From a virus (lineage: Duplodnaviria; Caudoviricetes), in the IMG/VR virus record IMGVR_UViG_3300029288_000145, positions 1 to 64,000 of that record: a DNA stretch of 64,000 nt. One strand, 5' to 3'. Under the pieces are notes generated by a model. It was not told the origin of the DNA. It did not search any database and saw only the letters and a list, made by a program, of their open reading frames with translations. Positions 11,557 to 64,000 of this stretch are shown here, in pieces (positions within the stretch are counted from its first letter, which is position 1; each line of letters begins with the position of its first letter). Both the position numbers and the translations under genes were made by a program.

Positions 11557-11638
11557 ATTTTTAATTGGACTAAACAGAACCATATTATTGATTATCAGGA
11601 GATATTATTTAGAATGTGAACATACTAGCTAGTTACCT
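11557..11638 (+). repeat. attI-like recombination site, copy 2
   Basis: ATTTTTAATTGGACTAAACA..ATTTAGAATGTGAACATACTAGCTAG|TT; gapless with copy 1. Confidence 0.75.
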
Positions 11639-38050: not shown

Positions 38051-38051
38051 T

Positions 38052-40779: not shown

Positions 40780-40780
40780 A

Positions 40781-41065
40781 TCAGAATGGTAAGTCGTCTC
40801 CGCCGGCCTGGGGTGGTATAGGTTCTTCTTCTTCTTTTGGTTTTGGTTTGTACGTGTCCAGGACAACGCTGTGTGTGTATCCGTATTCAGATACCTTCTT
40901 CATAGGACTGACAATGATGTTGATGTACTCCTTGCCACGTTTATCCTTCCACTTGTATTCCTGTATGTCATTTTCACTGAGGTCTGTCAGGCATACTGAA
41001 ACGACAATGAATTTCCCGAAACGGCCTTCTTTTTCCTTGGCCGAACCACAATAAATTTTTTCCAT
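40781..41065 (-). CDS. Small OB-fold/SSB-like protein
   Basis: 94 aa beta-rich core with acidic tail ending GGDDLPF. Confidence 0.5.
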   Translation of the reverse strand: MEKIYCGSAKEKEGRFGKFIVVSVCLTDLSENDIQEYKWKDKRGKEYINIIVSPMKKVSEYGYTHSVVLDTYKPKPKEEEEPIPPQAGGDDLPF

Positions 41066-46936: not shown

Positions 46937-49900
46937 TTACATTACCATAAAGAAGTTATGATTTGTTGCTGGTGGCGATGGTGAAGCTGATATTGACAAT
47001 GACGGGCTACTTGATAATGATGTCGATGGTGAGTGTGATATTGAGGAACTTATACTCGTACTGAGTGAGGCAGATACCGAACTCGATGGCGACAGACTGA
47101 TGCTTGAACTTACAGAACTTGACGGTGATAGACTGATACTTTGACTTATAGAACTAGATACAGAACTACTTGGCGATAATGATATACTGGTCGATGGAGA
47201 GGCACTGATGCTTATAGAGATACTAGTGGAAGGTGATAACGAAATAGATTCGCTTATACTTGTACTCGGCGAGACACTTGCCGATATAGACGTACTCAGG
47301 CTTGATGAAATAGATAATGATGGAGATAGAGATAGAGATGTAGATATTGAACTAGACGGGCTTACCGATGATGAAGGACTACTAGACGGTGAACTTGATA
47401 TACTTGTAGAATGGGAACCCGAAAACGATTCAGATATACTTTCCGATGGTGATACGCTTGATGATAATGAATGACTTATGCTTTCAGAAATAGAGGATGA
47501 TGGTGAACTACTTGGTGATGAACTTGGTGATAATGATGGTGATGAACTTACACTCGTGCTTACAGACAATGATGGAGATAGGGATATAGATTCACTAGCT
47601 GAACTAGATGGTGATGTTGATACAGATTTTGACGGACTTATACTTGGTGAACTACTGATGCTTACGGATGGTGATGTCGATGGCGATACACTTCCCGAAA
47701 TACTACTTGATACAGACAGGCTTATTGACCCAGAGGGTGAACTGCTCGGACTTAACGATACCGATTCAGATGGACTAACTGATATTGAACTGGAAATTGA
47801 TAATGATGGCGATAGGCTGATACTTGATGAGGGCGATAACGATATGGATAATGAAGGACTTAATGATATTGAACCGGATGGTGAACTGGAAGGGCTGGAT
47901 GATACCGACCCACTTGGACTTGTACTTATTGATGTACTTACACTTGACGATGGTGACCTGGATACACTCGAACTTGGCGAGGTTGATGGTGATACTGAAC
48001 TTGATAGTGAACTACTGGGTGATTCTGATGGTGATGCACTGATGCTGGTACTTATACTTGTACTAGGAGATGTTGAGGCCGAACTGCTTATGGAACCAGA
48101 GGGACTTAATGACGGCGAACTAGATACCGATAGTGACGGGCTTAGGCTGATGGAGGAACTTATGGATAGGGATGGTGATAAACTTATCGAACTTGATATT
48201 GACCTGGACGGTGATAATGACACCGAGGAACTTACTGAACTACTTGGACTAAGTGATGGAGAAGTGCTTAAACTATGTGAAACCGAACTGGATATTGATA
48301 GCGATGGAGATAACGATACGCTTGACGACAATGATGTGGATGGACTCAGTGATACCGAACTTGATACCGAACTACTTATGGATAACGAAGGGCTTAACGA
48401 AATACTACTCGATATTGACCGGGAGGGTGACGATGATATACTTGAACTTATTGACGTTGAAGGTGACGAACTTATTGACCTGGACGCCGATGAGGAAGGA
48501 CTGACCGATATTGACGATGATGGTGATACAGATATTGATGACGAGGGACTTACTGATGTAGATGGAGAAGATAGAATAATTCCCCAGAAATTTACCTTTA
48601 CAGTGGTGGTGGCCGGAACACTTAAAGATGCAGAAGGACTGCTAGATAAGGATGATGACAATGAAGAACTGGCGGAACTGCTGACGGAACTACTGGCGGA
48701 ACTGCTGGGTGATGAAGATACAGAACTCGATATTGATAGGGACGGACTTAAACTTATACTTGTACTGGGTGACAGACTTGGTGATGTTGATGGACTGGCT
48801 GAACTTGATGGCGAAGAACTTACAGAGCTTGATATAGATGTTGAGTGTGATCCTGAAAACGATTCCGATATGCTTGATGAAGGTGACACGCTACTTGACG
48901 GTGAACTACTTACAGAACTAGATAAAGATGTACTCGGCGAACTACTTTCAGACGTACTCACAGAACTTGATATACTTGTTGACGGAGATATGCTTTGTGA
49001 TGGAGATAGACTTGGACTGGATGATAGTGAAGTTGATGGTGAGTTGGATACAGACGTGCTTACACTCTCGCTTGGTGACGATGATAGGGAAGAACTTATA
49101 CTCGTACTGGGAGATACAGAACTCGACCTGGACGAACTTGGACTGCTGGATATTGACGTGGATGGCGATGTTGAAATTGATGATGACAAACTTCGTGACG
49201 GCGAATGTGATCTTGATGAACTCACCGATGTTGAAGGAGAACTGCTTACACTTATTGACGGTGAAGTGGAAACGGAGGATGACACACTTATACTTGGCGA
49301 CAGACTGATACTTGTCGATGGTGATGTTGATGGTGAAACGCTGCTTGACACAGAACTACTCGGCGATGAACTTATTGACCGGGATGGTGACAAGCTGGGA
49401 CTGGACGATACTGATTCTGATGGACTAGATGATACAGAACTACTTATTGATGTGGAAGGACTGACAGAAGATGATAATGAGGTGCTTACAGAGGATGATA
49501 CAGATTCACTCTGGGAAGAGCTGGGACTGGATGACACACTCCTACTTGGACTTAACGATATAGATAATGATGGAGACAGGCTTGGTGAACTCGAAATTGA
49601 TGAACTTGGACTTAATGAAATAGAACTGCTGATACTTAATGACGGCGACAATGACACTGAACTTGATATACTACTTGATATTGAGCTACTAATACTGGTC
49701 GATGGTGAGGCTGATATTGAAGAACTCACACTTGTACTTGGTGAAACCGAACTGGATACAGAAGAACTTGGTGAAGAACTCAGTGAACTACTTGGTGACA
49801 ACGATACCGATGAGGATAATGAGGTACTTACAGAGGACGATAATGACCGGGACACTGACGTTGATGGCGACACCGAACTCGACACAGACGTACTCGGTGA

Positions 49901-51541
49901 CGTACTTACACTTGTACTTACAGAACTTGACGGGCTTGTTGATACTGATGAACTTGGGGAGGTGGATAATGAACTGCTTATACTTTCACTTATTGACGAA
50001 CTTATTGAACTGGATGGACTGCTTGATATTGATAGACTTGGCGATAATGATATTGAACTACTTTCACTACTACTGATAGAACTACTTATAGATAATGAAG
50101 GACTTAACGAGGCCGAACTGGATGGTGATAAACTGATACTTGAAGAAATAGATAATGATGGTGACAGGCTTACGCTACTTGACGGCGACAGACTGATACT
50201 TGTTGATGGTGATAGGCTGGCCGATGGACTAGCCGATACCGATGTTGATATTGACGAGGATATTGATGATATGGGATTGCCCAAAAATATAACGACATAC
50301 GCTCCATATATTCCTATTTCACCATTAACAGGGACAACAACGGTGGGTAGATAATTTTTGCCATCATTAAGGGTTAATGCTACCGTCCTTACCCTTTCCT
50401 TATTTGAATTAGCGAATTCTATTTTGGAATTTGTTATATGGGCATCTACGGTGCCTGAGTCAGCATTATCCTCACCCAGATCGACATAAATATCACCATC
50501 AACAGATTCGTTTCCAGTGACCTCAAAATACGGCGTATATGTAGAGTATGCGTTGGCATCAAAAAACATCCTTCCCTCTGTGTGTTCCTGCGCCACACCT
50601 ATACCCGCATAACCCCGGCTGATTCTATAATAAACGTCTATGGCGGTAACATTTATTACCCGGAGATATAATCTTGCCTCACTTATCCTGGCGTTGTAAC
50701 TTTCACTGCCAGATTTTATTTTTACCTCTATCAGATCGCCGTTATCAAAGTTTGTAGCATTGTTGGCGAAACTGACCGAACAAAGTGTTGGCGTGGTACT
50801 GTTGGTAGATACTTCACTTCCGGTTATTGCGTTTCCTGACGAATCATATAAACAGGCATATGCTGTGGATGCTGCATTTTCAGAGTACATAACAACCTCA
50901 AATGTCCATACATTACCAGAACCAATTGTAGAGAACCTGTTTTCATCCTTCTTAAAATATGCGTATCTTTTTGGTATATCTTGGGTATAAGATGTGCTTG
51001 TTGTGGAATCAACAGCAGTACCATTAAACCGTGAGGATTCTCCAAAATCACTTCCAATAAGGGGTATTTGTATTCTTGTATTTACGAACTGATTCTGTTG
51101 TACTATTATCCGTGATGAATATACCTTTACCTCGTTATTTACCGATGTGCCGGGTATTTCTATGTCATAATCATTTGCACCACCAACCATAGATAGTGCC
51201 GCTGTGCGAAACCGGGTTGGCACCGTTGTCCCTCCCGGAACGGGTATGGCATCAATAATACTAACACCATTTACCAGGCGTGGGGAATAACTGCCGGCGT
51301 TGTCGTTTGTGGCAACTATTTCCCAGTAATATGTGCCATTATAGTAATCAGCGGTATCAATATTTATCCTTGTCCTTGTAAATGTTGTATCGGTGGTTGA
51401 ACTGGTACAGGTAAGGCTACAATTATCCAGGGGTATTTCAAATATTGGGGAACCAGCACTTGGGCTTGGCGAACTCGACAGTGATCTTGAAGGAGATACT
51501 GAGGCTGAAGGTGAACTCGATATGGATGTTGATGTAGACAT
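46937..51541 (-). CDS. 1534-aa serine-rich repeat protein: about 390-aa globular domain plus about 1,100-aa (Ser-X)n stalk
   Basis: Ser at alternate positions from about aa 424 to 1522, one break (VPATTTVKVNFWGII); TAATG-coupled to the upstream gene. Confidence 0.8.
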   Translation of the reverse strand: MSTSTSISSSPSASVSPSRSLSSSPSPSAGSPIFEIPLDNCSLTCTSSTTDTTFTRTRINIDTADYYNGTYYWEIVATNDNAGSYSPRLVNGVSIIDAIPVPGGTTVPTRFRTAALSMVGGANDYDIEIPGTSVNNEVKVYSSRIIVQQNQFVNTRIQIPLIGSDFGESSRFNGTAVDSTTSTSYTQDIPKRYAYFKKDENRFSTIGSGNVWTFEVVMYSENAASTAYACLYDSSGNAITGSEVSTNSTTPTLCSVSFANNATNFDNGDLIEVKIKSGSESYNARISEARLYLRVINVTAIDVYYRISRGYAGIGVAQEHTEGRMFFDANAYSTYTPYFEVTGNESVDGDIYVDLGEDNADSGTVDAHITNSKIEFANSNKERVRTVALTLNDGKNYLPTVVVPVNGEIGIYGAYVVIFLGNPISSISSSISTSVSASPSASLSPSTSISLSPSSSVSLSPSLSISSSISLSPSSSASLSPSLSISSSISSSESSSISLSPSLSISSSPSSSISSSISESISSSLSTSPSSSVSTSPSSSVSTSVSTSPSTSVSSSVSPSTSVSRSLSSSVSTSLSSSVSLSPSSSLSSSPSSSVSSSVSPSTSVSSSISASPSTSISSSISSSISSSVSLSPSLSISSSISLSPSSSISSSPSLSPSLSISLSPSRSVSSSPSSSQSESVSSSVSTSLSSSVSPSTSISSSVSSSPSESVSSSPSLSPSRSISSSPSSSVSSSVSPSTSPSTSISLSPSISVSSSVSTSPSISVSSSPSTSVSSSRSHSPSRSLSSSISTSPSTSISSSPSSSRSSSVSPSTSISSSLSSSPSESVSTSVSNSPSTSLSSSPSLSPSQSISPSTSISSSVSTSESSSPSTSLSSSVSSSPSSSVSPSSSISESFSGSHSTSISSSVSSSPSSSASPSTSPSLSPSTSISLSPSLSISSSVSSSPSSSASSSVSSSASSSLSSSLSSSPSASLSVPATTTVKVNFWGIILSSPSTSVSPSSSISVSPSSSISVSPSSSASRSISSSPSTSISSSISSSPSRSISSSISLSPSLSISSSVSSSVSLSPSTSLSSSVSLSPSLSISSSVSHSLSTSPSLSPSSSVSSSVSLSPSRSISSSISLSPSLSISSSISLSPSLSVSSSPSLSPSGSISSSASTSPSTSISTSISASPSESPSSSLSSSVSPSTSPSSSVSRSPSSSVSTSISTSPSGSVSSSPSSSPSGSISLSPSLSISLSPSSSISLSPSLSISSSISVSPSESVSLSPSSSPSGSISLSVSSSISGSVSPSTSPSVSISSSPSISPSKSVSTSPSSSASESISLSPSLSVSTSVSSSPSLSPSSSPSSSPSSSISESISHSLSSSVSPSESISESFSGSHSTSISSSPSSSPSSSVSPSSSISTSLSLSPSLSISSSLSTSISASVSPSTSISESISLSPSTSISISISASPSTSISLSPSSSVSSSISQSISLSPSSSVSSSISLSPSSSVSASLSTSISSSISHSPSTSLSSSPSLSISASPSPPATNHNFFMVM

Positions 51542-53370
51542 TACCCTTGTTGATATACCCTACAGGCTACTGTATCGGCACCATCTTTATAATTGGTTAA
51601 ATCAGAAATTGTTGCTGTTAATGTAAAGTCCGTGTCCTCCGGGGAGGTGTTGTCGGAATCAATGGTATCCCATGTTAGTGTTGATCTATTATATATTTGT
51701 AGATATACGGTCACCAGTGGTGGGGGACTATTAGTTTGTAATACACAGGTAAATATTCCAGAATTAAACGTGCCTACAAAATTTTTAAACTGGTGAATAG
51801 CATATTTCCCAGATGCACTTTGATCTACCCAGTCGTTATCTACTGCTGCAACATATATATAATCTATTGCCGAATATGACGTGCTTAGGTCATCATCTGC
51901 CGCTGGTAATGCCAAGTAGTCTCCCCGTGAATAGTTTTCTGTGGAGGGTGACGTTGATGAACTTATGCTTGTGGATGGAGATAGGGATAATGATGAACTT
52001 GGTGAACCTGATGGTGAACTACTTAAACTTATACTTACCGAACTTGATAATGAACTACTTAGTGATAACGATGGTGATTTGCTTATACTACCACTTACCG
52101 AACTACTAACACTGCTTGATGGTGATGGACTGGCCGATATTGATGTTGATATTGAACGACTTGGAGAATGTGAGGCTGAGGCTGATGGTGAACTGCTTAT
52201 GCTACTACTGGGTGTGCTTACTGCAATATATGAAACCAATCCGGTTTTTACATACCTTGCTGTAGGGGTTCCGCTTGGTGTAACATCTATATCTATCGCA
52301 TCGTTTGATGTAATATTATCTGTGTGAATAGTATCGTTTGCTGTTGTTGCTGCATCTGCAATAGTACATGTAAGAGTGCCATTTCCAGCATTTATACGAA
52401 GTGTTATTGCATAAGATTTTCCTGCTCCTGGTGTCCCACTTAAAGCTGCATATAGTTTTTTAAATACTGAAGTATATCCACGTTGATATGAATTAGCCTC
52501 TGTTGATATTGGCGAAAATAAAATAGTTCTATTACAGTAATGATACCTTGTAGCACTTGTTGAGGTATTAACATTAGTACCACCAAGCAATAAACTCTCC
52601 CCGTTTATGGTTGCAACAAAAGATAATTTTCCATAAATTCTCGGTCTTGCCGATGGAGTGTTTAAAGGCACAATTTCTAATGAAACCAAATCCCCTGCAA
52701 CCACGGCAACATTATGGGTCGTATCGCTTCCCGTGGTATCGTCTGCTGTTATCGTACAGGTTAATGTTGTTGCTACCCCGTTAAGATAAAGAGTAAAAGA
52801 ATACGCATCTGGCGAAGTTCCGGGGTCGGCACTTAATGAGGTAAAAAGCCTGTTTATCGTCCCTGCCGTTGGAATTATTTGAGACACCTGCACTTCTGTT
52901 GTTGATGTAACGCCTACACCGCCTCCCGTTACGCCCTGATATTGTGTGGCTGAATTATCACACACACCACCAAACATCAAATTACTTTCATTGGCTGTTG
53001 TGCCATCGAATTTTAATACCCATGAACAGTTTGTGACTGTTGGTGTATTTGTAGGCACTGATTTTAAATAAATAATATCTCCTTCAGCAAAAGCTACTCC
53101 TGCACCTGAATAAGTACCGCCAACAGCAGCATCGGCAATATGAACTGTTATAGCCGTATCAACTCCGTTTTTAACAACGGTAAAATCATAAGAAGTACCC
53201 GCCCCCGGTGCTGCACCAAGTTCTACATAGAAATAACTATACGTTCCAACGCAGGCAAGTTGCTTTAATACAGCCACATTAGTATTCCATGTGTCACCAC
53301 CTTGGACTACGTTGTAACTATTGGCACTATTTGATAGTGTCCCGCCCCTGCCTGTTATGCCTTGTATCAT
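51541..53370 (-). CDS. Virion-type protein: three repeated beta domains, about 90-aa (Ser-X)n linker, C-terminal domain
   Basis: Repeats YVELGAAPGAGTSYDFTV / FTSLSADPGTSPDAYSFTL / YAALSGTPGAGKSYAITL. Confidence 0.7.
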   Translation of the reverse strand: MIQGITGRGGTLSNSANSYNVVQGGDTWNTNVAVLKQLACVGTYSYFYVELGAAPGAGTSYDFTVVKNGVDTAITVHIADAAVGGTYSGAGVAFAEGDIIYLKSVPTNTPTVTNCSWVLKFDGTTANESNLMFGGVCDNSATQYQGVTGGGVGVTSTTEVQVSQIIPTAGTINRLFTSLSADPGTSPDAYSFTLYLNGVATTLTCTITADDTTGSDTTHNVAVVAGDLVSLEIVPLNTPSARPRIYGKLSFVATINGESLLLGGTNVNTSTSATRYHYCNRTILFSPISTEANSYQRGYTSVFKKLYAALSGTPGAGKSYAITLRINAGNGTLTCTIADAATTANDTIHTDNITSNDAIDIDVTPSGTPTARYVKTGLVSYIAVSTPSSSISSSPSASASHSPSRSISTSISASPSPSSSVSSSVSGSISKSPSLSLSSSLSSSVSISLSSSPSGSPSSSLSLSPSTSISSSTSPSTENYSRGDYLALPAADDDLSTSYSAIDYIYVAAVDNDWVDQSASGKYAIHQFKNFVGTFNSGIFTCVLQTNSPPPLVTVYLQIYNRSTLTWDTIDSDNTSPEDTDFTLTATISDLTNYKDGADTVACRVYQQG

Positions 53371-53373
53371 TTC

Positions 53374-53604
53374 TTAGTTTATCTTTTTCGTCTTTGTCCA
53401 GTCAATTGTTGTTTCTGAACCTTTTTTAGTAATGATTTTTTCTTTAATTATCTCCTGTTTTTGTAATTCCATCCATCCGTTTAGCTTGACATTATTATCA
53501 ATCAGATAAGCCCATGCCTCTGCACGTTCTTCTTCTGATGGATTTAACAGTGTAATTACACTTTCATCATTAAGTATGATGTTTGTTTTCCTGTTGCTTA
53601 TCAT
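53374..53604 (-). CDS. Hypothetical protein
   Basis: 76 aa, in operon. Confidence 0.5.
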   Translation of the reverse strand: MISNRKTNIILNDESVITLLNPSEEERAEAWAYLIDNNVKLNGWMELQKQEIIKEKIITKKGSETTIDWTKTKKIN

Positions 53605-54514
53605 GTTTTTTTATTTTTATCAGATCATCGTCAGTCCATCCCGGAATCGGCCAGAATTTCTCCACAAGCCAACTTAATGGGTGAACTCCATTAAATTTGT
53701 TGTTAAGCCACAGGTCTTTTGAATACCTACGTGCCTTTTCCTGTGCTTTCCCTGACATGGGGTAGGGAAATGAGAAGTCACCTCCCTGGGTGCGGAACAT
53801 ATGTCCGAACCATGTTTTTTTATTACACACCAACCGGCCTCCGGTCAGCCACGTTTTACAGGCTATTTCCGTTCCCTGTTGTCCCCACGAACCGTGTTCT
53901 TCATCACAAAAGTTATACTTCCAGTATCTCTCCCTTGTCAACATCCAACAGGCACCGATAAGGGACATGTTTTCAACAATGTCCCCTTCTGGCTTGCGGT
54001 CATTCCAATATTGGAAATGTAGGTTGTTGTCAAACCGCCACTGGGAGGTTTTTATTCCCCTATTCGATTTCCAGATAACTTCTTTATGTGTTGGCTTTCC
54101 ACATTCTTTACAGACGCCGGAGGGACTCATATATCTCCTGTGTCCATCCTCACACACCCAGTCGAATACGTGCCAGTTATACATGAGTGGTACAACAGTC
54201 CAGTCATCCTGCATGTCGGCCATTAGTTTGACATCAAACCCTTCGTCAAAGGCACAGTGGGCATCACACTTCATAACGTATTTTGCCTGTGATAGCCGAC
54301 AACATTGATTGGTAATTGCCCTCTGGCCTATTGCTTCGGGTACATAAAATATTGTCAGGTCGGGATGTTGCGGTATGGGAATATGATTCCACTTACCGTC
54401 CAAACCAACGATTATTTCTGTGGCACCTCGTTTATTTTTAAGAATGTCCTCAATAGTGTTGAGTAACCATTCCTCATTTCGTGCCGGTATTAATATGGAC
54501 AGGTCGTACTTCAT
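53570..54514 (-). CDS. GT-A glycosyltransferase (GT2/GT27-like)
   Basis: LSILIPARNE, KCDAHC (DxH), WGQQGTEIACKTWLTGGRL...FGHMFR. Confidence 0.85.
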   Translation of the reverse strand: MKYDLSILIPARNEEWLLNTIEDILKNKRGATEIIVGLDGKWNHIPIPQHPDLTIFYVPEAIGQRAITNQCCRLSQAKYVMKCDAHCAFDEGFDVKLMADMQDDWTVVPLMYNWHVFDWVCEDGHRRYMSPSGVCKECGKPTHKEVIWKSNRGIKTSQWRFDNNLHFQYWNDRKPEGDIVENMSLIGACWMLTRERYWKYNFCDEEHGSWGQQGTEIACKTWLTGGRLVCNKKTWFGHMFRTQGGDFSFPYPMSGKAQEKARRYSKDLWLNNKFNGVHPLSWLVEKFWPIPGWTDDDLIKIKKHDKQQENKHHT

Positions 54515-55032
54515 AGATTTTTCAGGTCTTTAAAGTTTGATAAAACTGTTGCCCAGGGACGACATTCCTTCCAGTCGAACCTGTATTTGAAATTGGAATA
54601 CATTTCTTCCGTATATCCATAGGTATCCGGTTCTTCTGTGTCATGTAAAACAAGGAACTCTGCACTGTCCTTAAACCTGACAACATCACGTCCCCGGTAT
54701 CCCCAGGTATAGTCCTTTTGTGGTACGGCGTGGTCTATAAGTATAACTCCAGCCCTGTCTTTAATGTTTACGTCTGTCATCCAGTCATTTACCTTTACGA
54801 TACGGTGCATCTTGCTCTGGAACTGCTTGGCATACAGGTAGAATTGTTCTTCGCTTTCATAGGTGATAAGTTTGCGGCCAAATCCTTTACACATCCAGTG
54901 TAAGAATGGCGTACTACCAATGCCACAGCCGAACTCAATGACCGTTCCCGAACTATTGATAATAGTTTCATAGAGCATCCACATATGGGAACTCCATCCT
55001 TTGCCGACATTAACTTTGTGTTTAAGATACAT
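54511..55032 (-). CDS. Small class I SAM-dependent methyltransferase-like protein
   Basis: VIEFGCGIGST, ITYES, VILIDH. Confidence 0.7.
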   Translation of the reverse strand: MYLKHKVNVGKGWSSHMWMLYETIINSSGTVIEFGCGIGSTPFLHWMCKGFGRKLITYESEEQFYLYAKQFQSKMHRIVKVNDWMTDVNIKDRAGVILIDHAVPQKDYTWGYRGRDVVRFKDSAEFLVLHDTEEPDTYGYTEEMYSNFKYRFDWKECRPWATVLSNFKDLKNL

Positions 55033-55729
55033 ATAGATAGTTTTTTTTAAGGTTCGTTATTTCTCCCCAGTAGGGGACATCTGTTAATTGACTTTTCATA
55101 TCCGCCCTAACACTCCAGCTAACACCCTTGCCGGTTTTAAATGTTATACACGGATTTTCAAGAGATACCCTTACCGTGTTTTTGTCATGGGTGGTAAATC
55201 GCCTCCGGAATGGCATATTATGATTTTTATCGCCGGCAAACCATTGTGGCATACCCTCAAAGAATATTTCACATTGTTTGATAAATAGTTCCCTGTCAAT
55301 AATCTGGGCACCATCGGAATCACTTTTAGGGTAGTAGTATGGATACTCTTTGGCATCAAATACTACCTGTATATTTTTCATCCTATATGCTTTACCAGGT
55401 TCACTGGGTTCAAAGGCAAAGTAATCGGGTGGATACAGATAGTCAGATTCAGCAAACACCAGATATTGAGAGGTGGCTTCCAAGGCTCCTAGATATATTT
55501 GCCGGAACTCGTTAAGATAACTCTGGCCAACATCACCAACACATATATTGTGCCCTATATCCATAGGTTTTTGGGTAACACTTATCATTGGCAGCCCACA
55601 CCTATTATGCAACATTGTTTCAACAACCTGTCTTTCAAAACGTGGGTTTTCCCTGTTGCTGCTGTAATATATTATTGTTTTATTTAACATTTGCATTACA
55701 AGTTTTACATAGTGGCATATCAAAATCAA
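55022..55729 (-). CDS. GT-A fold glycosyltransferase-like protein (paralogue 1 of 3)
   Basis: PMISVTQKP, NEFRQIYLG, VFAESDYLY; start may be ATG 55690. Confidence 0.65.
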   Translation of the reverse strand: MILICHYVKLVMQMLNKTIIYYSSNRENPRFERQVVETMLHNRCGLPMISVTQKPMDIGHNICVGDVGQSYLNEFRQIYLGALEATSQYLVFAESDYLYPPDYFAFEPSEPGKAYRMKNIQVVFDAKEYPYYYPKSDSDGAQIIDRELFIKQCEIFFEGMPQWFAGDKNHNMPFRRRFTTHDKNTVRVSLENPCITFKTGKGVSWSVRADMKSQLTDVPYWGEITNLKKNYLYVS

Positions 55730-56414
55730 GATTCATGTGCCTTTTCCTTAATGGTTTGGCAATTTTAATGATCTCAGCGAGACTTTGTTTAGTAATATCG
55801 CCAAGGATAACTTCGCCGTTGTAGTCCAGGCAGCACATTGACACTCTTCCATCCCATAATATACAGGTATGTTTGCTGAAGGCGTAACAGGGCACCCTGA
55901 CCACTCCCTCTTTTTGTTTGGGGTCGTCAAAGTAGTCGTTAGCCCTGTAAGTGCTTACTTTTGACCGGTGTCCCCATTTTTTCTTAAAGGCTTTTTGCTT
56001 TTCAATGTCTGTATCAAGAAATACACGAGATATTCTTACATAGAAATCGGCATTGTCAAGCAGTTTCCTTATGTTTTTTTCATAAGCATCTACCCCGTTG
56101 TCACTGCAATTTATTCCGTTCAGACATTTGTATTTCAGCACTCTGTCAACATCCATAAGTCCTCCGTTTGTAGACAGGTTTACTTTCACACCCTGTTCTT
56201 CCATATAATCCAACCATTCGTATATCCTGTCAAAAGCAAAGGGGTCACCATACAGATACGGACTGTACTGTTTGATATTGTTTTTCTTACCTTCGGAAAT
56301 GATGTGGTGAAATAATTCATCACTCATTTCTCCCTTTGGTCTCGTCACACGAAGGCCAGGACAATAGGAACACTTCAGGTTACACTTGTAGGAACTTTCA
56401 AATATAAGTCTCAT
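55680..56414 (-). CDS. Radical SAM protein with SPASM/twitch domain
   Basis: CNLKCSYC (CxxxCxxC), GDP, LSTNG; PC...DGRVSMCCLD...LGDI...CKTC. Confidence 0.9.
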   Translation of the reverse strand: MRLIFESSYKCNLKCSYCPGLRVTRPKGEMSDELFHHIISEGKKNNIKQYSPYLYGDPFAFDRIYEWLDYMEEQGVKVNLSTNGGLMDVDRVLKYKCLNGINCSDNGVDAYEKNIRKLLDNADFYVRISRVFLDTDIEKQKAFKKKWGHRSKVSTYRANDYFDDPKQKEGVVRVPCYAFSKHTCILWDGRVSMCCLDYNGEVILGDITKQSLAEIIKIAKPLRKRHMNLDFDMPLCKTCNANVK

Positions 56415-57142
56415 TAGCGAAAATGTTTTAAAATTTCTTCAGCCCTTCCCCAGTATGGGATGTCATAGGCTTGTATCTCTCCATAGCTTTTGCGGTGTTT
56501 CCTCTGCCGTTCTTCACTTGCCCAGTCGTGGTTTACCTGTATGAAGGCAACCTTGGCAGCATGGGTGTCGCAACAATTCCTTAACCCCACACCCAGATTT
56601 CTCTCAACCATACCCCGGCCAACTTCACCAACCCTGTTTTCAGGGCATCCATCAGGCCATTTTGTATAACGTTCTTCTAGGGCATCAATAAGATACTCTC
56701 TAGGAGCGATCAGGGCGGCGTTGCTTAAACGGTTCCTCCAGTGATAGACCGGAATACCCCAGGTGAATAACGTTGCCCTGTTGCGATCATACAGAACCTC
56801 ATTATCACATGGACGCCTGAAGGTGAAGTGAAATTCGTGATACAGGCAGTCATCCTCGGCTACCGCTACATATTTTGTTTCCGCCACCTTACAAGCTCTT
56901 AACATTTGCCTGTAGATGTTGTCAGTACACTTTTTTCCATCATCCAGAATGTTGTGCCCGAAATTTAACGGCTCCCTGGACACGCTGATAATAGGAGTGT
57001 CCTTTATTGCCTCCAGTAATACCTCTTTTTGATAAGCGGCAAAGTGTGGCTTATGCTTTTCAAGCATTGAGGCCGTTAAATAGATTACTGTCATTTGTTC
57101 TATCATACGAATAATTTTAAGTATTTGTCCGGTGATTCCCAA
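56414..57142 (-). CDS. GT-A fold glycosyltransferase-like protein (paralogue 2)
   Basis: PIISVSREP, NIYRQML, VAVAEDDCLY. Confidence 0.7.
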   Translation of the reverse strand: MGITGQILKIIRMIEQMTVIYLTASMLEKHKPHFAAYQKEVLLEAIKDTPIISVSREPLNFGHNILDDGKKCTDNIYRQMLRACKVAETKYVAVAEDDCLYHEFHFTFRRPCDNEVLYDRNRATLFTWGIPVYHWRNRLSNAALIAPREYLIDALEERYTKWPDGCPENRVGEVGRGMVERNLGVGLRNCCDTHAAKVAFIQVNHDWASEERQRKHRKSYGEIQAYDIPYWGRAEEILKHFR

Positions 57143-57798
57143 TAGGGTATAGTATATGCCTGTATTCTTTTCATCTGTTTTTTATGCCTGTGTTCAATAG
57201 CCTCTTTGCCAGTGTTTTCGTTTGTGAAGTAGTCGTGATCAATTTGTATAACTCCATTATAACTCCAAAATGGGAGTGTTTTTGCCGGGGTTAGTCCTAA
57301 ATACTTTTCTGATTTACCTATTTCGTTGCAGTGTTCTACCGGCACCAGTGGGTATTTATCAAATCTTTCTTCGAGACTTTTTATCACAGCTAACCGGCCT
57401 CCGACCATAAAGGCGTTTATGTAACTCTGTTTCTTTTCCATAGAGTAGATAGGCTTTGCCCAGGTATAAAGGTTCCACCTGTACTGATTATATGCTATCT
57501 CATCTATTTGCGGTGTAAAGGCGAAAAAGTGATCAGAAGCATATAAACAGTCATCCTCGGCTATGGCAATAAACGGTGTTGTTGCCAACTTTGCGCCTCT
57601 TAATATCTGCCTGTAGATATTATTGACGCCAAGTCCTCCGTCCTGGATGATGTTTTTGTCACCGAACTTCATGGGTTCACGAGATATGGTTATTATTTCA
57701 CACCCATTGGAGGCTGTTAATAGAACATCCATCTGGTAACTATGCCATTTTTCAGGAACCCGGTTTGCTGTTAAATATAATATTGTTAAGTTACTCAT
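57103..57798 (-). CDS. GT-A fold glycosyltransferase-like protein (paralogue 3)
   Basis: EIITISREP, NIYRQIL, IAIAEDDCLY. Confidence 0.7.
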   Translation of the reverse strand: MSNLTILYLTANRVPEKWHSYQMDVLLTASNGCEIITISREPMKFGDKNIIQDGGLGVNNIYRQILRGAKLATTPFIAIAEDDCLYASDHFFAFTPQIDEIAYNQYRWNLYTWAKPIYSMEKKQSYINAFMVGGRLAVIKSLEERFDKYPLVPVEHCNEIGKSEKYLGLTPAKTLPFWSYNGVIQIDHDYFTNENTGKEAIEHRHKKQMKRIQAYTIPYWESPDKYLKLFV

Positions 57799-58703
57799 AC
57801 TGTTTTCCTTATTATTGCTGTTTCATAACCAAGAGCTTTAAGTATCCCTGCCCGGTGGCATCCGTCTATAAGGCGGTTGTCGGTACGTACTACAAGAGGA
57901 CTTTTCAATCCTTTGAGCTTTACATTATTATACAAGTCCAGTTTACTTAATAAGAAATTGTCTGCTTCTTTTTCAGACCATTTTTTACTCCTGTATTTGC
58001 GCAAAAAGTTGGCGTATTCGGACTTCATGGGACTATGGCTGGTATAGAAATCCATTGTGCTGTCACTATTTCCTATTGATTTAATAGGCACCCGGTCAAG
58101 GTGTTTGCTTTTAAATATGATAGACGACATCTCCCTGGGTGACGGGTCTCCTTCTGGATTTATCCAGGGAATATAACCGGTTTCCTCCCAGTCTTTGAAG
58201 TATTCCCTGAGAGCTTCTATGGATGATAACGCCCTCCATGATTTGTATGTTGTTTTTACGGTGACGATAAGGCAATATCTGGTCTTGTATTGTAGTTTGT
58301 CTAGATATTCAAGCCAATCAATGATTCTTAGGTGGTAGTGGACGTTTACAAGTACAGTAACATCAGCCAATGGAAGGAAATTAGTGGCTTTTGTTAGGTC
58401 GTCTAATATTATGTTGTAATCAAGGTCATGATCATCACGGTATTTTATTCCTCGTTCCCATGCGCCTTTATCTGATTCAACTCCTATTACCCGTTTATAT
58501 CCAAGTTCTTTTGCGAGACCCAGATATAATCCGGCATTGCACCCACCTTCAATGTATGTCAGTTCTTTACATAGTTTTGGTAGTAAGGGAAGTACAAAGT
58601 AGTTCCATTTTCCCACGTCCCAGAATTTGCTGTTTTTTTCAAGTTCATACCTTTCGTTTGTGGGATCGCCAGGCAGGTGTTGATATACGTTGTATTCTTT
58701 CAT
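57795..58703 (-). CDS. Class I methyltransferase fused to a ParB/Srx-like domain
   Basis: YIEGGCNAGLY..VIGVESD; C-terminal GLKSPLVV...LIDGCHRAG. Confidence 0.7.
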   Translation of the reverse strand: MKEYNVYQHLPGDPTNERYELEKNSKFWDVGKWNYFVLPLLPKLCKELTYIEGGCNAGLYLGLAKELGYKRVIGVESDKGAWERGIKYRDDHDLDYNIILDDLTKATNFLPLADVTVLVNVHYHLRIIDWLEYLDKLQYKTRYCLIVTVKTTYKSWRALSSIEALREYFKDWEETGYIPWINPEGDPSPREMSSIIFKSKHLDRVPIKSIGNSDSTMDFYTSHSPMKSEYANFLRKYRSKKWSEKEADNFLLSKLDLYNNVKLKGLKSPLVVRTDNRLIDGCHRAGILKALGYETAIIRKTV

Positions 58704-59477
58704 TTATATCCCCCACCTTGGTTTAATTATATTGTTATAGTAATTTTCCCATGTCTCCCGGCTGTAATTGAATGATGCCCTGGAAAGTTCCCCAGAATAA
58801 TGGTGTGTGCGCTTAAAACTCCTGTGTTTGTGTGCGTGGAAGGTGTTTTTGTTTAACATCAACTTACCGCCACGTACCCATGTTTTAAACACCATCTCAT
58901 GACTGTCCTGGTAGTGCGTACCATATCCCTCGGATTGTAATTCCTTGATACAGAAATCCCACCACGATTTTTTCATAATCCATACAGAACCCTGGATGGC
59001 CATGTTCTCGGCAATGGCAACATTTTTTAATTGTTCATCCCGTTCCGGCCATGCCACAGAACTGAATTTTTGTTCCTTGCCGACAATTAGTAGTTTGCAG
59101 AAATTTACCGGTGGTAAGTCCATTATTTTCCATTTCTCCGGGTCGAGATAGTACCTTGTTGGTGCCACTATCCAGTTGTCCTCAAATGTTTCGGTAAGTT
59201 TTTTGTCGTATCCTTCACTAAACAGGCAGTGTTCATCAGTTCTCATGATGAATTCTCCCTTGGCAACGGCAACTCCATGATTTATAGCATTACGCATACC
59301 ATGTGCTTGTCCGTTGTGGACGATTTTTATTCTCCTGTCATTTCTCAATTGTTTTTCCGGCCAATAGCCATCTAAGACTGCAATGATCTCAACATCTCCC
59401 TCTGCATTGTCAAGTAATGAGTCAATGGTTGGGTGAAGAAACGGGTCTTTGTAGCTTGGAATTATTACAGAAAGCAT
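58704..59477 (-). CDS. GT-A glycosyltransferase (GT2/GT27-like)
   Basis: LSVIIPSY, VLDG, RTDEHC (DxH), EMVFKTWVRGGKL...HAH. Confidence 0.85.
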   Translation of the reverse strand: MLSVIIPSYKDPFLHPTIDSLLDNAEGDVEIIAVLDGYWPEKQLRNDRRIKIVHNGQAHGMRNAINHGVAVAKGEFIMRTDEHCLFSEGYDKKLTETFEDNWIVAPTRYYLDPEKWKIMDLPPVNFCKLLIVGKEQKFSSVAWPERDEQLKNVAIAENMAIQGSVWIMKKSWWDFCIKELQSEGYGTHYQDSHEMVFKTWVRGGKLMLNKNTFHAHKHRSFKRTHHYSGELSRASFNYSRETWENYYNNIIKPRWGI

Positions 59478-59491
59478 TTATTATTATTTTA

Positions 59492-60367
59492 TTATGGTTC
59501 ATTTGCTATTGATACAAAGTCAAAGGTGTCCAAATTTGTGTCTCTTATGAATCCAAGATACATACATTTACCGGCAATGGTTGTCCCTGGTAAAAGTCCA
59601 CACTTGTCTTTAAATTTTCCACCATATGTTAATAACCTGGGCACACCGTTGTCATATATCCTGATCCTTTTGTTTCTTCCATTGGCAACAACGCCGGTGG
59701 GATTGTTTATGAGTAGGTCGGTGTCAAGTGCCGTGAATTCAATGTCGTCATAGGAACCGAAGTCTGGCGTAAATGGACTGGTGGTGGTGGTTAATGTCAA
59801 TACCCTGGGTGCGGGAATAACGGGTGTTGTCAGTTCTAATCCGGTTTCACCGGCATTTACTGTAGGAACTTTGCCGGCATTACCGGTATAGGATTTTGTT
59901 ATGCTGTCGGTAAGACTTAGAAATGATTGTACGGAATAAATATCATCCGGCCATGAGTAGGTTAAATCCACCTGTGGCAGATATTGGGCTTTTATCGTTA
60001 TGACGAATATTATAGCAACCGGAGGAGACGCAGGAGTACCACTAAGAGCGTAAGCACCTGAAGTATTAAGAGTAGTCGTAATAAGAACGCCACCCGCTGT
60101 ATATGCAGGGGTTTCTGTAGGTACACCATTAATTTCAGTAATAATAGCATCAGCCAACCCCGGAAACCTGTCGGGTGAGATTGTGTAAAGCGTAGGAGAT
60201 ACTGAGCCACCCCCGACTTTTGGGACTGTAACTGTTCCTGTGTTTGCTGTAATACTGTTCCAAATCGGGATAACATAGTCTATGTTTTTTAATAAGTTAA
60301 TATCTGTTTCATAGTCCTTGTGGTCGTGCATTAACCATCCAAACCGCTTGTCTATTTGTATAGCCAT
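59492..60367 (-). CDS. Fibre-type structural protein
   Basis: Thr/Gly-rich; C-terminal FTPD..LINNPTG..GRNKRIRIYDNG..RLLTYG module typical of phage fibre tips. Confidence 0.55.
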   Translation of the reverse strand: MAIQIDKRFGWLMHDHKDYETDINLLKNIDYVIPIWNSITANTGTVTVPKVGGGSVSPTLYTISPDRFPGLADAIITEINGVPTETPAYTAGGVLITTTLNTSGAYALSGTPASPPVAIIFVITIKAQYLPQVDLTYSWPDDIYSVQSFLSLTDSITKSYTGNAGKVPTVNAGETGLELTTPVIPAPRVLTLTTTTSPFTPDFGSYDDIEFTALDTDLLINNPTGVVANGRNKRIRIYDNGVPRLLTYGGKFKDKCGLLPGTTIAGKCMYLGFIRDTNLDTFDFVSIANEP

Positions 60368-61140: not shown

Positions 61141-62646
61141 TTAACCTGCACCTGATGGACTGGTTGATAAGGATGTTGATACTGAGGATGATATACTTGT
61201 TGATGGACTAAATGAAACCGAACTTGATACAGAGGTAGATTCACTGCTTGATATTGATGTCGATGGGCTTACAGATGAGGATGGACTGCTGGATATACTT
61301 GTGGATGGCGATATTGATATGGAAGTAGAAAGACTTGTTGATATTGAAGTCGATGGACTTGTAGATGGTGATGTGGATATACTGGTTGAAGGACTTGTAG
61401 AAATTGATGTGGAGGGACTGATAGATATTGATGTCGATATGCTGGTAGATGGACTATTTGATATAGATGTTGAAGGACTGAGGGAGATTGATGTGGACGG
61501 TGATGTTGATGGACTGGATGATACCGAAGTTGAAAGACTTGATGATATTGAGGTTGAGGGGCTGATAGAACTGGATAAAGAACTCGATATACTGCGTGAC
61601 GGGGAACTTGACCTACTTAGCGATGGCGATGTTGATATAGAAGTACTTGGTGATATTGATACACTGCTCGACAAACTGCGTGATGGTGAAGTTGATGGAC
61701 TTAATGACGGTGATGTTGATACTGATGTCGATGGACTCAATGACGAGGATATACTTGACGACACACTTATTGACGGCGATGTTGATATTGAGGTCGAGGG
61801 TGATATTGAAACGCTACTGGAAACACTTGTCGATGGTGAACTGGATACACTGGTCGATGGGGAAGTACTGATACTTGTCGACACCGATGTTGATACCGAA
61901 CTGGATACACTGGTTGATGCAGAACTTGATATTGAACTGGAAGGACTGGTTGATATACTGCTTGATATTGACAACGAAGGGCTGACAGATAATGATGGGC
62001 TACTGGATACCGATGTAGACGGACTGTGTGATATTGAACTGGATATACTTGTTGAGGGTGAAAATGCGTCCCTGTGTGTAACCTGCCAGATGTTTGCAAC
62101 AACATTTATGGCTCTTTCCATTACGGTGCCGGCAGCCGTCCAGCTTTCCCGGTAGTCACCATTTGACAACGTGCCATTTACGGTGTAGTATATGTAATCA
62201 CCGTCAACATACGTGTTCCCGTGTGGGTTTGATGCGGCGATTATCTTGGCAAGTAATTGTGTAGTATTCAGGTCAATAGACATGAGGCACTGACCTAATT
62301 TGGTATCATTGTATGTAAGCAATGACATTGTTGAATTAACCGGCATTGCTTTGAAATAAATTATTTCATCACAACTTATGATATTCAATGCGTTTACCAA
62401 TTCACCACCCTTGGTAAGTACAGGAAGTTCAACTCTTGTTCCTGGGACAAACTCATCGACCATAGCCAATAAGCTGGCATATGTTTCGGTTGTAATGTAT
62501 TTGAAGGTCAGAAAGGCTTCCTGGTATTCAAATTGACGGGTACTCCCCTTGTCTCTGATGTTTGACATACGACCCACATTGAAATACTTAGTCTCGCTGT
62601 GTGCTGTATTGTTCTTTTTTGTGGTGGTTAAATAGGCGAACTGCAT
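61141..62646 (-). CDS. Protein with about 195-aa N-domain and about 305-aa (Ser-X)n tail
   Basis: Ser at alternate positions from about 62062 to 61147; first gene after the promoter at 62662. Confidence 0.8.
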   Translation of the reverse strand: MQFAYLTTTKKNNTAHSETKYFNVGRMSNIRDKGSTRQFEYQEAFLTFKYITTETYASLLAMVDEFVPGTRVELPVLTKGGELVNALNIISCDEIIYFKAMPVNSTMSLLTYNDTKLGQCLMSIDLNTTQLLAKIIAASNPHGNTYVDGDYIYYTVNGTLSNGDYRESWTAAGTVMERAINVVANIWQVTHRDAFSPSTSISSSISHSPSTSVSSSPSLSVSPSLSISSSISTSPSSSISSSASTSVSSSVSTSVSTSISTSPSTSVSSSPSTSVSSSVSISPSTSISTSPSISVSSSISSSLSPSTSVSTSPSLSPSTSPSRSLSSSVSISPSTSISTSPSLSRSSSPSRSISSSLSSSISPSTSISSSLSTSVSSSPSTSPSTSISLSPSTSISNSPSTSISTSISISPSTSISTSPSTSISTSPSTSPSTSISTSLSTSISISPSTSISSSPSSSVSPSTSISSSESTSVSSSVSFSPSTSISSSVSTSLSTSPSGAG

Positions 62647-62661: not shown

Positions 62662-62692
62662 CAAAATTAGTAAATAATAACTGCGTTTCAAA
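62662..62692 (-). promoter_or_regulatory. Promoter of the Ser-repeat/glycosyltransferase operon, structural-gene class
   Basis: TTTG-N19-TAATTTTG. Confidence 0.7.
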
Positions 62693-64000
62693 GTTGAGGC
62701 ATTTCAGTCTCTTTCTCTTTTTCTAATTTTCTCTCCTGCTTTTCAAGTTTATCAAAATCTGTCTCTTCATCTATTTTAATATTGGGGTTAATTTTCTTTA
62801 ATTCTGTGGCATATTTTAATATAAAATACATTCTTGCCCATTTCTGTCCCTGTTCGTAATCGTCTCTTAATTTTTCCTTTAGTTCATCATGGGTTATTTC
62901 TTCATCATCAATATTATTAAGATCAACGGCGGCTAGTCTTAATTTTGCCTGGTTGCTCATTCTGGAATATTCAGAATATAATTTACTTGATAATTTAATT
63001 TTTTCTCCACTTATAACAAGCGTATGTGATGGTGATGTTGGCAATAACTCGCTGTCTCCGGTTGTTTTATAAAGACTATAAAGCCTGTAATATGGATGTT
63101 TTGTATCTACTTTTCTTCCTTTAAATATGCTGAATAAATTGAATAATACATCATTACGACCTTCTGGTGCTATGGGTATTTGCTCTCCGGATATATCAAT
63201 CTTTGGCGCAAGTTCTTTTCCACTAAACAACCTTATCTTTTGACGGTTAAGTATAGTTTGCCACATATCCTCATCCTTTGTTTCCTTTAATACTTCCAAT
63301 TTACTCCTGCTTATTGTAGATAGCCAGTTTGGTACTAATGGTAGCGTTGTGGTATTTATCATGGCATTTAACCATTCCGTACCATACCTATCTCCGTCCT
63401 GTAGTGCATTTAAGGTATTACTGGTTCCCTGAACAAATGGTTGTTCAAGCGATATACTGGCCAAAGAACTTATTTTGTTAAATACTTCTGTCACGCTAAA
63501 TTTTAACTCATTCATATCTTTTATTTCTTTGGCGGACATACCTTTATACTTGCTTGCATTGAGTCCAACAACCATCCCTACTATTCCGGTTTTGTTATAT
63601 GCAATACGGCGGTCTCCATCTTTCGCTCCACCTTTGGAGTTTCCCATAATCCAACGCATTAACAGGCTGGTATTAAGTTCGTATGGTCTGTCAAATTTGT
63701 ACCTCATTTCTTTAACAGCCTCATCCTCTTCTTTTATAGAACCTGATACTATGTCATTCTGTACTAACTGGCCTATGACATATTGCAGGGTCATTCCGAC
63801 CAAGTATGTATTGAGACTGTTTATGGCCTTATATTTTTCACCCCTAGAGGCATGATATAAAAATGTCAACATATTCAGTTCGGGTATTCCGATCATAACA
63901 AATCGCTTGAATACATTGAGCGGTGTTCTCATAAATAGAAATTGGGAACGAGCTAATACTTTTAAGGCGGCTCCGATAACGGGTTTATCTCCTAAATAAT
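62688..64000 (-). CDS. C-terminal part of a large internal virion/ejection-type protein (runs off the right edge)
   Basis: Frame stays open upstream of track start 63932 to the edge (YLGDKPVIGAALKVLARSQFLFMRTPLN); FMRTPLN, QPFVQG and PLVPNW patterns. Confidence 0.55.
   Translation of the reverse strand, partial: YLGDKPVIGAALKVLARSQFLFMRTPLNVFKRFVMIGIPELNMLTFLYHASRGEKYKAINSLNTYLVGMTLQYVIGQLVQNDIVSGSIKEEDEAVKEMRYKFDRPYELNTSLLMRWIMGNSKGGAKDGDRRIAYNKTGIVGMVVGLNASKYKGMSAKEIKDMNELKFSVTEVFNKISSLASISLEQPFVQGTSNTLNALQDGDRYGTEWLNAMINTTTLPLVPNWLSTISRSKLEVLKETKDEDMWQTILNRQKIRLFSGKELAPKIDISGEQIPIAPEGRNDVLFNLFSIFKGRKVDTKHPYYRLYSLYKTTGDSELLPTSPSHTLVISGEKIKLSSKLYSEYSRMSNQAKLRLAAVDLNNIDDEEITHDELKEKLRDDYEQGQKWARMYFILKYATELKKINPNIKIDEETDFDKLEKQERKLEKEKETEMPQL

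Follow-up and report, generated by a model that had tools for sequence, protein, structure and literature searches.

What would enzymes resembling the polypeptide N-acetylgalactosaminyltransferases (GalNAc-transferases, GalNAc-Ts; glycosyltransferase family GT27) of eukaryotes do in a phage, and what would they act on? The question is raised by a 64,000-nucleotide stretch of the IMG/VR virus record IMGVR_UViG_3300029288_000145 (the window, bases 1-64000 of a linear record of 76,930 bases), in which two such glycosyltransferases, GT-A1 and GT-A2, stand at the ends of an eight-gene cassette flanked by proteins with very long tracts in which serine occupies every other position (Ser-x tracts). 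The record, which carries a large terminase and a primase/helicase, comes from an uncultivated tailed phage. We consider it moderately likely that the cassette, whose enzymes are soluble, directly O-glycosylates the Ser-x tracts of phage proteins in the host cytoplasm and thereby coats the particle with sugar. A preliminary description of this DNA had quoted several motifs for the two glycosyltransferases, and translation of the minus-strand open reading frames (ORFs) placed every one of them at the positions claimed. The two enzymes and their motifs are as follows.

53570..54514, minus strand: GT-A1, soluble GT27-like GT-A glycosyltransferase of 314 amino acids (aa), assigned from Pfam, phmmer against PDB and fold
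54254..54268, minus strand: CDAHC of GT-A1, residues 83-87 (DxH: D84, H86), which aligns to DAHC of GalNAc-T7 and GalNAc-T1
54101..54154, minus strand: Cys/His-rich insertion of GT-A1 (CEDGH ... CKEC), residues 121-138, read from the sequence
53831-53887, minus strand: WGQQGTEIACKTWLTGGRL of GT-A1, residues 210-228, from the translation
53792-53806, minus strand: GHMFR of GT-A1, residues 237-241, from the translation
53792..53887, minus strand: Gal/GalNAc-T-like motif of GT-A1, W210-G-Q-Q-G-T-E216 ... W222 ... G225-G226 ... G-H238-M-F-R, which carries the GalNAc-T match
58704..59477, minus strand: GT-A2, paralogous soluble GT27-like GT-A glycosyltransferase of 257 aa, assigned from Pfam, fold and paralogy
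59226-59240, minus strand: TDEHC of GT-A2, residues 80-84, from the translation
58860-58901, minus strand: HEMVFKTWVRGGKL of GT-A2, residues 193-206, from the translation
58821-58838, minus strand: HAHKHR of GT-A2, residues 214-219, from the translation

GT-A1 and GT-A2 are 30% identical over residues 5-284 (expectation value (E) 2.3e-27), indicating that they are paralogues, and the N-terminal half of each matches Pfam Glycos_transf_2 (PF00535; GT-A1, E 2.2e-7, 31.4 bits, model positions 1-113 of 168; GT-A2, E 5.4e-17, 62.7 bits, positions 1-125), both above the cut-off of 23.3 bits. When 177,635 distinct PDB sequences were searched with phmmer, all 16 matches to GT-A1 at E <= 1 were polypeptide GalNAc-transferases (T10, T7, T1, T9, T2, T4, T12 and Toxoplasma enzymes; best E 3.9e-5), aligned through residues 171-275. 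GT-A2 gave seven matches: over most of the protein to GalNAc-T4 (residues 42-249, E 9e-4), GalNAc-T12 and the Toxoplasma GalNAc-T 6s22, and through its N-terminal half to GalT1 (5hea, E 5.5e-4) and three other bacterial glycosyltransferases (6p61, 3bcv and 9jma). A 42-member family profile had 28 matches in PDB at E <= 0.01, the top 15 being GalNAc-Ts (E 1.4e-17 to 4.4e-11). The best GalNAc-T alignments span both halves of the enzyme, whereas chondroitin synthase, GalT1, 6p61 and other non-GT27 enzymes align to profile positions 1-99 only, indicating that the C-terminal half is specifically GT27-like.

The likeness to polypeptide GalNAc-transferases that the preliminary description had proposed is borne out by the predicted folds. 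The AlphaFold models of GT-A1 and GT-A2 have mean predicted local distance difference test (pLDDT) values of 95.2 and 95.3, respectively, and a predicted template modeling score (pTM) of 0.92, and in Foldseek searches against PDB every match listed in the top 50 ranks, with either model as query, is a GalNAc-T (E about 3e-15 to 3.5e-12, identity 15-22%). VIA-align, which is independent of Foldseek and was run against 48,161 representative chains, paired the GT-A1 model with mouse GalNAc-T1 (Z 26.2, 264 residues aligned, root-mean-square deviation 2.8) and Toxoplasma GalNAc-T3 (Z 24.6), and the non-GT27 runners-up were 6p61 (Z 18.9), K4 chondroitin polymerase (18.6) and SpsA (17.9), leaving a gap of about 6 Z units between GT27 and other GT-A enzymes. 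By both sequence profile and fold, these data support the conclusion that the two phage enzymes are nearer to GT27 than to any other solved glycosyltransferase.

The positions shared with GT27 include residues that are invariant within each phage family. Columns D84, H86, E216, W222, G225 and H238 of GT-A1 (42-sequence family alignment) and D81, H83, E194, W200, G203, G204 and H216 of GT-A2 (41-sequence family alignment) align, in the phmmer and profile alignments, with the DxH, second Glu, Trp, Gly-Gly and His of GT27, and the family profile places the DxH and later His of GT-A1 on the DAHC and GHVFR of GalNAc-T1. By comparison with GT27 structures, we take D84/H86/H238 and D81/H83/H216 to be metal ligands. 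The Gal/GalNAc-T motif has the form WGGENxE...FRxW.CGG. The preliminary description had likened the phage enzymes to WGGENxE...GHxFR; the DxH, second Glu, Trp, Gly-Gly and His of that comparison stand, and its WGGEN part holds only partially. In GT-A1 the core reads W-G-Q-Q-G-T-E, followed by K-T-W-L-T-G-G, and GT-A2 retains of the motif only the second Glu (E194), the Trp (W200), the Gly-Gly (G203, G204) and the His.

The phage enzymes depart from GT27 in their architecture as well. Consistent with the earlier remark that no ricin lectin domain is present, neither protein has a lectin match in Pfam at E <= 10 (beyond Glycos_transf_2 there is only a sub-threshold match to the related Glyco_tranf_2_3), and the fold match to GalNAc-T1 covers residues 1-303 of the 314 in GT-A1. 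The first beta-strand of the models begins at residue 5 in GT-A1 and residue 2 in GT-A2, and the maximum 19-residue hydropathy is only 0.53 in GT-A1, which therefore has no membrane segment, and 0.78 in GT-A2; by these measures neither enzyme has the stem and type II anchor of a Golgi enzyme. Since they lack the lectin domain and the anchor and keep WGGEN incompletely, we call the enzymes GT27-like and do not assign them to GT27 itself. The Cys/His-rich insertion of GT-A1 is probably a zinc ribbon, to judge from its sequence, and would then bind metal; at the same site other members of the GT-A1 family have CxxC...CxxC or lack the insertion, and it is missing from GT-A2. A different insertion, of ~190 aa, in frame and free of stops, lies in the variable loop ahead of the C-terminal half of a GT-A1 orthologue in another viral contig (L013, 10001-11460, plus strand); it may be an inserted domain or a mobile element.

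Both enzymes belong to large families. Of 4,450 candidates, 4,246 proved to be relatives of GT-A1 at E <= 0.001, and these fall into at least 911 clusters at 50% identity; GT-A2 has 1,786 relatives. GT-A1 matches nothing in PHROGs or NCBIfam; GT-A2 has no PHROG match and its NCBIfam matches are all far under the cut-offs. None of 50,697 GenBank phage records contains a full-length relative of either enzyme (two match the N-terminal half of GT-A2 only), and thus no cultured model phage was found. In BFVD, GT-A matches come just from uncultured phages and giant viruses (best A0A516LS96, E 1.5e-20). A search of genome contigs with GT-A1 retrieved two short contigs of metagenome-assembled genomes (3.3 and 1.9 kb), labeled actinobacterium and Clostridia; these are probably mis-binned pieces of phage and therefore yield no evidence about the host.

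To place the two enzymes relative to each other, we inferred a tree for 36 GT27-like sequences, all from phages, taken from 17 loci and the window, by a quick search with an arbitrary root and no bootstrap; two loci that repeat others (L138 and L140) and matches with an envelope of <200 aa or a full-sequence E >1e-30 were left out. Sequences of the GT-A1 type form a clade of 16 on a long stem, one per locus, with a Shimodaira-Hasegawa-like approximate likelihood ratio test (SH-aLRT) value of 100. The other 20 show greater diversity, a single locus holding as many as three of them, and GT-A2 lies in a clade of five with sequences from L134-L137 (SH-aLRT 99).

The candidate acceptors are three proteins encoded on the same strand as the cassette and flanking it.

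46937..51541, minus strand: 1,534-aa candidate acceptor with Ser-x tracts at residues 2-29, 426-975 and 992-1523 (1,110 residues), from the translation
51541..53370, minus strand: 609-aa candidate acceptor with a Ser-x tract at residues 388-477 (51940-52209; 90 residues); the gene starts 200 bp downstream of GT-A1
61141..62646, minus strand: 501-aa candidate acceptor with a Ser-x tract at residues 196-499 (61150-62061; 304 residues), from the translation

Altogether these proteins contain 1,504 strict Ser-x tract residues, with serine at alternate positions in unbroken runs of up to 550 residues and the remaining positions filled mainly by P (20%), S (19%), I (15%), T (12%), L (12%) and V (11%). 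The tract DNA uses all six Ser codons, and exact repeats of >18 nt were not found on the grid tested, indicating that the Ser-x pattern has been kept at the protein level and is not the product of recent slippage; this composition suggests that selection has acted on the pattern in the protein. The globular parts, which precede the tracts or are joined by them, match no known family. None of the three proteins matches PHROG or Pfam, and the N-terminal part of the 609-aa protein falls in viral-only Atlas clusters. A 958-aa Asp/Glu/Leu-rich ORF runs antisense to the 1,534-aa gene (47478-50354, plus strand); most likely it is no gene but an artefact that mirrors the periodic Ser codons.

The preliminary description had placed the enzymes beside Ser/Thr/Pro-rich proteins, and this link extends well past the window. 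We examined 17 distinct viral contigs, 11 anchored on GT-A1 and six more on GT-A2 (the GT-A2 search returned seven loci, with L138 falling on the contig already represented by L003; L140 shares a contig with L062), and scored Ser-x runs of at least 30 residues within ORFs of at least 200 aa. Thirteen of the 17 contain such a tract ORF. In all 13 the ORF nearest to a cassette gene lies within about 2.5 kb, and in 12 within about 1.2 kb. A further contig, L010, has an (SSTP)n tract, which is outside the Ser-x definition. The globular parts of the window's tract proteins have no relative in any of these loci, suggesting that the enzymes travel with the tract and not with a particular protein.

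The reverse question, whether tracts are accompanied by the enzymes, was approached with a TC-period-6 DNA pattern as probe, which has 11 matches in the window and none in shuffled sequences. Out of 118 stretches in viral contigs, 80 loci are among the matches listed, most of them simple repeats or spurious frames, so the test rests on two loci with genuine heterogeneous tracts in real proteins, L031 (152 residues) and L062 (80 residues). GT27-like genes are present in both, together with two genes of the X family described below in L031, whereas none of the other 78 loci among the matches listed has a match that reaches the C-terminal half (0/78; L090 has generic N-terminal-half GT2 matches only). 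The contrast is clear despite the small numbers. With a Ser-tract peptide as the query for loci, 587 stretches matched and tblastn confirmed none of them.

In four contigs a recurring small protein adjoins the GT27-like genes (L004, 2001-2873; L013, 4504-5400; L031, 9094-10431; L062, 415-1350). It consists of an N-terminal part of ~120 aa (...FELK/FKLKENLP...) followed by a Ser-x tract to the C-terminus, has no copy in the window, and looks like a dedicated acceptor.

The cassette comprises eight consecutive minus-strand genes, which run from 59477 to 53570 in the order GT-A2, methyltransferase-like protein, X1, X2, radical SAM/SPASM protein, X3, 173-aa protein and GT-A1. All eight proteins are free of hydrophobic segments (maximum 19-residue hydropathy <= 1.27). 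The six genes between the GT27-like pair are listed below.

57795..58703, minus strand: methyltransferase-like protein of 302 aa (Methyltransf_23, E 0.0065, weak and under the cut-off)
57103..57798, minus strand: X1, GT-A-like paralogue of 231 aa (AEDD at 57550-57561), 37% identical to X2 (E 4e-49)
56414..57142, minus strand: X2, GT-A-like paralogue of 242 aa (AEDD at 56849-56860), assigned from identity to X1 and a match to profile A3 (E 4e-95)
55680..56414, minus strand: short radical SAM/SPASM protein of 244 aa (Pfam SPASM, 6.4e-12; Radical_SAM, 6e-9)
55022..55729, minus strand: X3, GT-A-like paralogue of 235 aa (AESD at 55442-55453), assigned from likeness to the fused protein P0002 and an Atlas model
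54511..55032, minus strand: 173-aa protein with an S-adenosylmethionine-binding-like EFGCGIG motif (Methyltransf_23, E 0.09 only; putative function)

The X family is matched by nothing in Pfam, PHROGs or NCBIfam, and its profile found only a spurious GH57 match among PDB sequences (E 0.087). Several observations support a GT-A-like fold for X1-X3, at the level of models and alignments. Across 31 X-family sequences, E81 and D83 of AEDD do not vary, and this motif appears to sit where the acidic motif of a GT-A enzyme would be expected. The Atlas model of X3 (pTM 0.87; the true start of X3 is probably residue 12) has viral 'Glycosyltransferase' and PF00535 clusters as structural neighbors, with template modeling scores of 0.63-0.73. 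P0002 is a 522-aa fused protein with a GT-A1 orthologue as its N-terminal part, and its C-terminal domain shares 41% identity with X3 (E 2e-16). X1, whose family of 121 proteins has no Pfam domain, likewise has a relative in the C-terminal domain found in fused forms of GT-A1 (E 8e-9). Many relatives carry GT-A1 fused to an X-type domain in this way, which ties the X paralogues to the GT-A1 pathway.

Across loci, the core of the cassette is one GT-A1 type enzyme, usually with further GT27-like paralogues, and X domains. In eight of 13 loci GT-A1 is followed by an X domain, and L136 has the gene order of the window (GT-A2, X, radical SAM, X, X, GT-A1, tract protein). Methyltransferase-like and radical SAM genes are present in some loci only. 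Homologues of the 302-aa protein (32-41% identity) occur in the cassettes of L012, L134 and L135, and homologues of the 173-aa protein, which matches nothing in PHROGs or NCBIfam, occur in L004, L013, L031 and L137. The radical SAM protein has a 44% identical homologue in the L136 cassette, and its NCBIfam matches are all far under the cut-offs; at 244 aa it is unusually short for a radical SAM/SPASM protein, and it may act on a sugar or a peptide.

The cassette lies among virion-type genes rather than replication genes, as the following features show together with those above.

59492..60367, minus strand: 291-aa protein between GT-A2 and the 501-aa Ser protein (phrog_3030, E 2e-5; phrog_18179 'virion structural protein', E 9.4e-4)
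62688-63998, minus strand: 414-aa ORF at the window edge, the C-terminal end of a 2,412-aa ORF that reaches record base 69926
31335-34856, minus strand: large terminase of 1,173 aa (phrog_6681, E 3.6e-48)
13430-15151: primase/helicase (phrog_239, E 1.6e-98)

The 291-aa protein is probably a virion protein, given its PHROG matches. The 2,412-aa ORF, upstream of the cassette on the same strand, has no PHROG match, and still further upstream on that strand proteins of 1,276 and 269 aa match 'virion structural protein' PHROGs.

How might these parts work together? Phage particles are assembled in the cytoplasm, and glycosylation of phage proteins would therefore be cytoplasmic, carried out by soluble enzymes using nucleotide sugars. 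In the reading we favor, the cassette enzymes would draw on host nucleotide sugars before virion assembly and add O-linked glycans, possibly methylated, stepwise to the serines of the tracts. A GT27-like enzyme would start the chain on the polypeptide, and GT-A1 is the leading candidate for this transfer because its type forms a one-per-locus orthologous group. Once started, the chain would be lengthened by the remaining GT-A enzymes, with the methyltransferase-like and radical SAM proteins trimming or decorating it, to give mucin-like, sugar-coated stalks or brushes on the particle. From the arrangement and likenesses of the genes we infer the tracts as acceptors, the order of the enzymes, the donor sugar, the linkage and the virion location of the tract proteins. 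On the strength of the likeness to GT27, the GT27-like pair would initiate the glycan and the three X paralogues would extend it, as the preliminary description had also proposed. L010 may serve as a minimal locus: it has a GT-A1 type enzyme and the (SSTP)n protein 1.3 kb away, with no X match in 17 kb, which lends some support to a GT27-like enzyme as the initiator.

Several points weigh against this reading. Neither a glycan or glycopeptide nor an enzyme activity is on record for any member of this family, and a GT27-like fold, here that of a model, does not prove that the acceptor is a peptide. In GalNAc-T1 the first Glu of WGGENxE is essential; GT-A1 has Gln at this position, and GT-A2 lacks this stretch of the animal motif. 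Three of the 17 contigs (L008, L009 and L011) have no tract, each of them cut short on at least one side. The tract proteins are placed on the virion by gene context alone, since they match no PHROG or Pfam family. No genes for nucleotide-sugar synthesis were seen by Pfam in the 62 window ORFs scanned, and the CheckV completeness of the record is just 66%. A broader and more doubtful proposition is that a large lineage of lectin-less cytoplasmic viral relatives of GT27 O-glycosylates Ser-x tracts of a kilo-residue in length and so builds mucin-like glycan brushes on virions, that the cassette moves between unrelated phages with hosts in different phyla, and that the lineage is possibly a prokaryotic-viral sister, or even the source, of eukaryotic GT27; we regard this only as a tentative extension.

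Alternatively, the roles could be reversed, with an X-type GT-A enzyme starting on the tract serine and the GT27-like pair only extending the glycan. X domains are almost as constant as GT-A1 and often fused to it, X has no solved sequence relative that would narrow down its acceptor, and some animal GT27 isoforms favor peptides that are already glycosylated. We nevertheless think this arrangement unlikely, given that L010 pairs a GT-A1 type enzyme with its repeat protein and has no X nearby, that L139 and L009 have a GT27-like gene without X (though both are short pieces), and that every solved enzyme standing out as a relative of the GT27-like pair acts on polypeptides. Less probable still is that the enzymes alter glycans or lipids of the host envelope, as in serotype conversion or receptor masking, and that the Ser tracts are plain flexible linkers placed by chance in the same fiber region. 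GtrB-type phage GT2 enzymes act in this manner, a GtrB-named protein of a crAss-like phage appears low in the BFVD list (E 2.9e-8), and the N-terminal half of the phage enzymes is common to generic GT2 enzymes. All of the cassette proteins lack a membrane segment, however, and Pfam detected no flippase, polymerase or oligosaccharyltransferase family in the 62 window ORFs scanned; an envelope function would also leave the link between enzymes and tracts across phages with unrelated tract proteins, and its reverse (2/2 against 0/78 among the matches listed), to be accounted for.

We give very little weight to the remaining alternative, that the cassette hypermodifies phage DNA with sugars. The window does encode a C5 cytosine DNA methylase (11633-12355, minus strand), and soluble phage GT-A enzymes that glycosylate 5-hydroxymethylcytosine, encoded like those here in multi-enzyme cassettes, have been described (bioRxiv 10.1101/2023.12.21.572611). 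The enzymes described there resemble JGT/TarP, with R...DDD...EDY/F motifs and not a DxH plus His, and the cassettes described there adjoin C5-methyltransferase and 5mYOX or thymidylate-synthase genes, whereas the C5 methylase here is 41 kb from the cassette. Tet_JBP (PF12851) and thymidylate-synthase (PF00303) were not found in the 76.9-kb record, the absence of PF12851 being weak since its control was positive in no genome, and the location of the cassette among virion genes and not replication genes argues against a role in DNA modification.

The large terminase reaches 1,173 aa because it carries an intein, in which Pfam places a Hint domain (Hom_end-associated Hint) at residues 332-428 and, at 594-669, a LAGLIDADG homing endonuclease; the PHROG matches of the terminase flank the intein on both sides. 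The nearest cultured relatives of the primase/helicase belong to a Riemerella phage (41% identity) and Flavobacterium phages (36%), which is weak evidence, from sequence, for a host in the Bacteroidota. A plus-strand gene (38016-38804), opposite in orientation to the structural genes and the terminase between which it lies, encodes a serine recombinase with Resolvase and Recombinase domains, which could be an integrase or an invertase. The minus strand also encodes a protein like 3'-phosphoadenosine-5'-phosphosulfate (PAPS) reductase (7059-8003) and a 256-aa protein with a GroES/Cpn10-like domain (40096-40866); together with the C5 methylase, these may represent DNA modification and a phage co-chaperonin.

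The cassette can be compared with several known systems. With the eukaryotic GT27 enzymes (mouse GalNAc-T1, 8v9q/1xhb; human GalNAc-T2, 2ffu/4d0t; Toxoplasma GalNAc-T3, 8uhv/6s22), GT-A1 and GT-A2 have in common the GT-A catalytic fold, the DxH, the later His in a GHxFR-like context and the E...W..GG of the Gal/GalNAc-T motif, and their candidate acceptors are Ser/Pro/Thr-rich repeats like those of mucins, the acceptors of GT27. The phage enzymes differ in being phage-encoded and cytoplasmic, without lectin domain, stem or anchor, in the Cys/His-rich insertion of GT-A1 and in the altered WGGEN core.

A second comparison is with the serine-rich repeat systems, in which the initiating GtfA/GtfB is a pair of the GT-B type; GalT1, matched by the N-terminal half of GT-A2, is presumably a follow-on enzyme of the Fap1 pathway. 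The Gram-positive serine-rich repeat glycoproteins GspB, Fap1 and SraP have very long tracts with serine at alternate positions, as here, and are glycosylated in the cytoplasm by soluble enzymes before export (PMC7948813, PMC6973325). Unlike in those systems, the carriers here are phage proteins, and GtfA/GtfB-type GT-B families and accessory Sec genes were not found by Pfam in the 62 window ORFs.

To our knowledge, protein glycosylation of phage particles is known only from a few mycobacteriophages. In Che8 and its relatives, phage glycosyltransferases are reported to glycosylate the phage's own capsid and tail-tube subunits and to form a glycan shield (Freeman et al. 2023, Cell Host Microbe, as presented in PMC11256854 and PMC12619734). 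The glycans in those accounts are at the C-termini of capsid and tail-tube proteins, whereas the candidate sites here lie in other large proteins, whose Ser-x tracts run to between 90 and 1,110 residues. Both protein O-glycosylation of Ser-rich repeats and glycosylation of phage virions are thus already known in kind, and full-text searches of the literature turned up no account of GT27-like phage enzymes or of phage Ser-x tracts being glycosylated.

If the proposed reaction does take place, families of 4,246 and 1,786 proteins would mark a very common yet undescribed type of phage surface. Such a sugar coat could influence how phages stick to hosts and to slime, their resistance to proteases and their evasion of recognition. 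Mucin-type O-glycosylation would also gain a relative outside the eukaryotes that is small, soluble and lectin-free, and that would be useful for studying how peptide acceptors are chosen and for glyco-engineering in bacteria.

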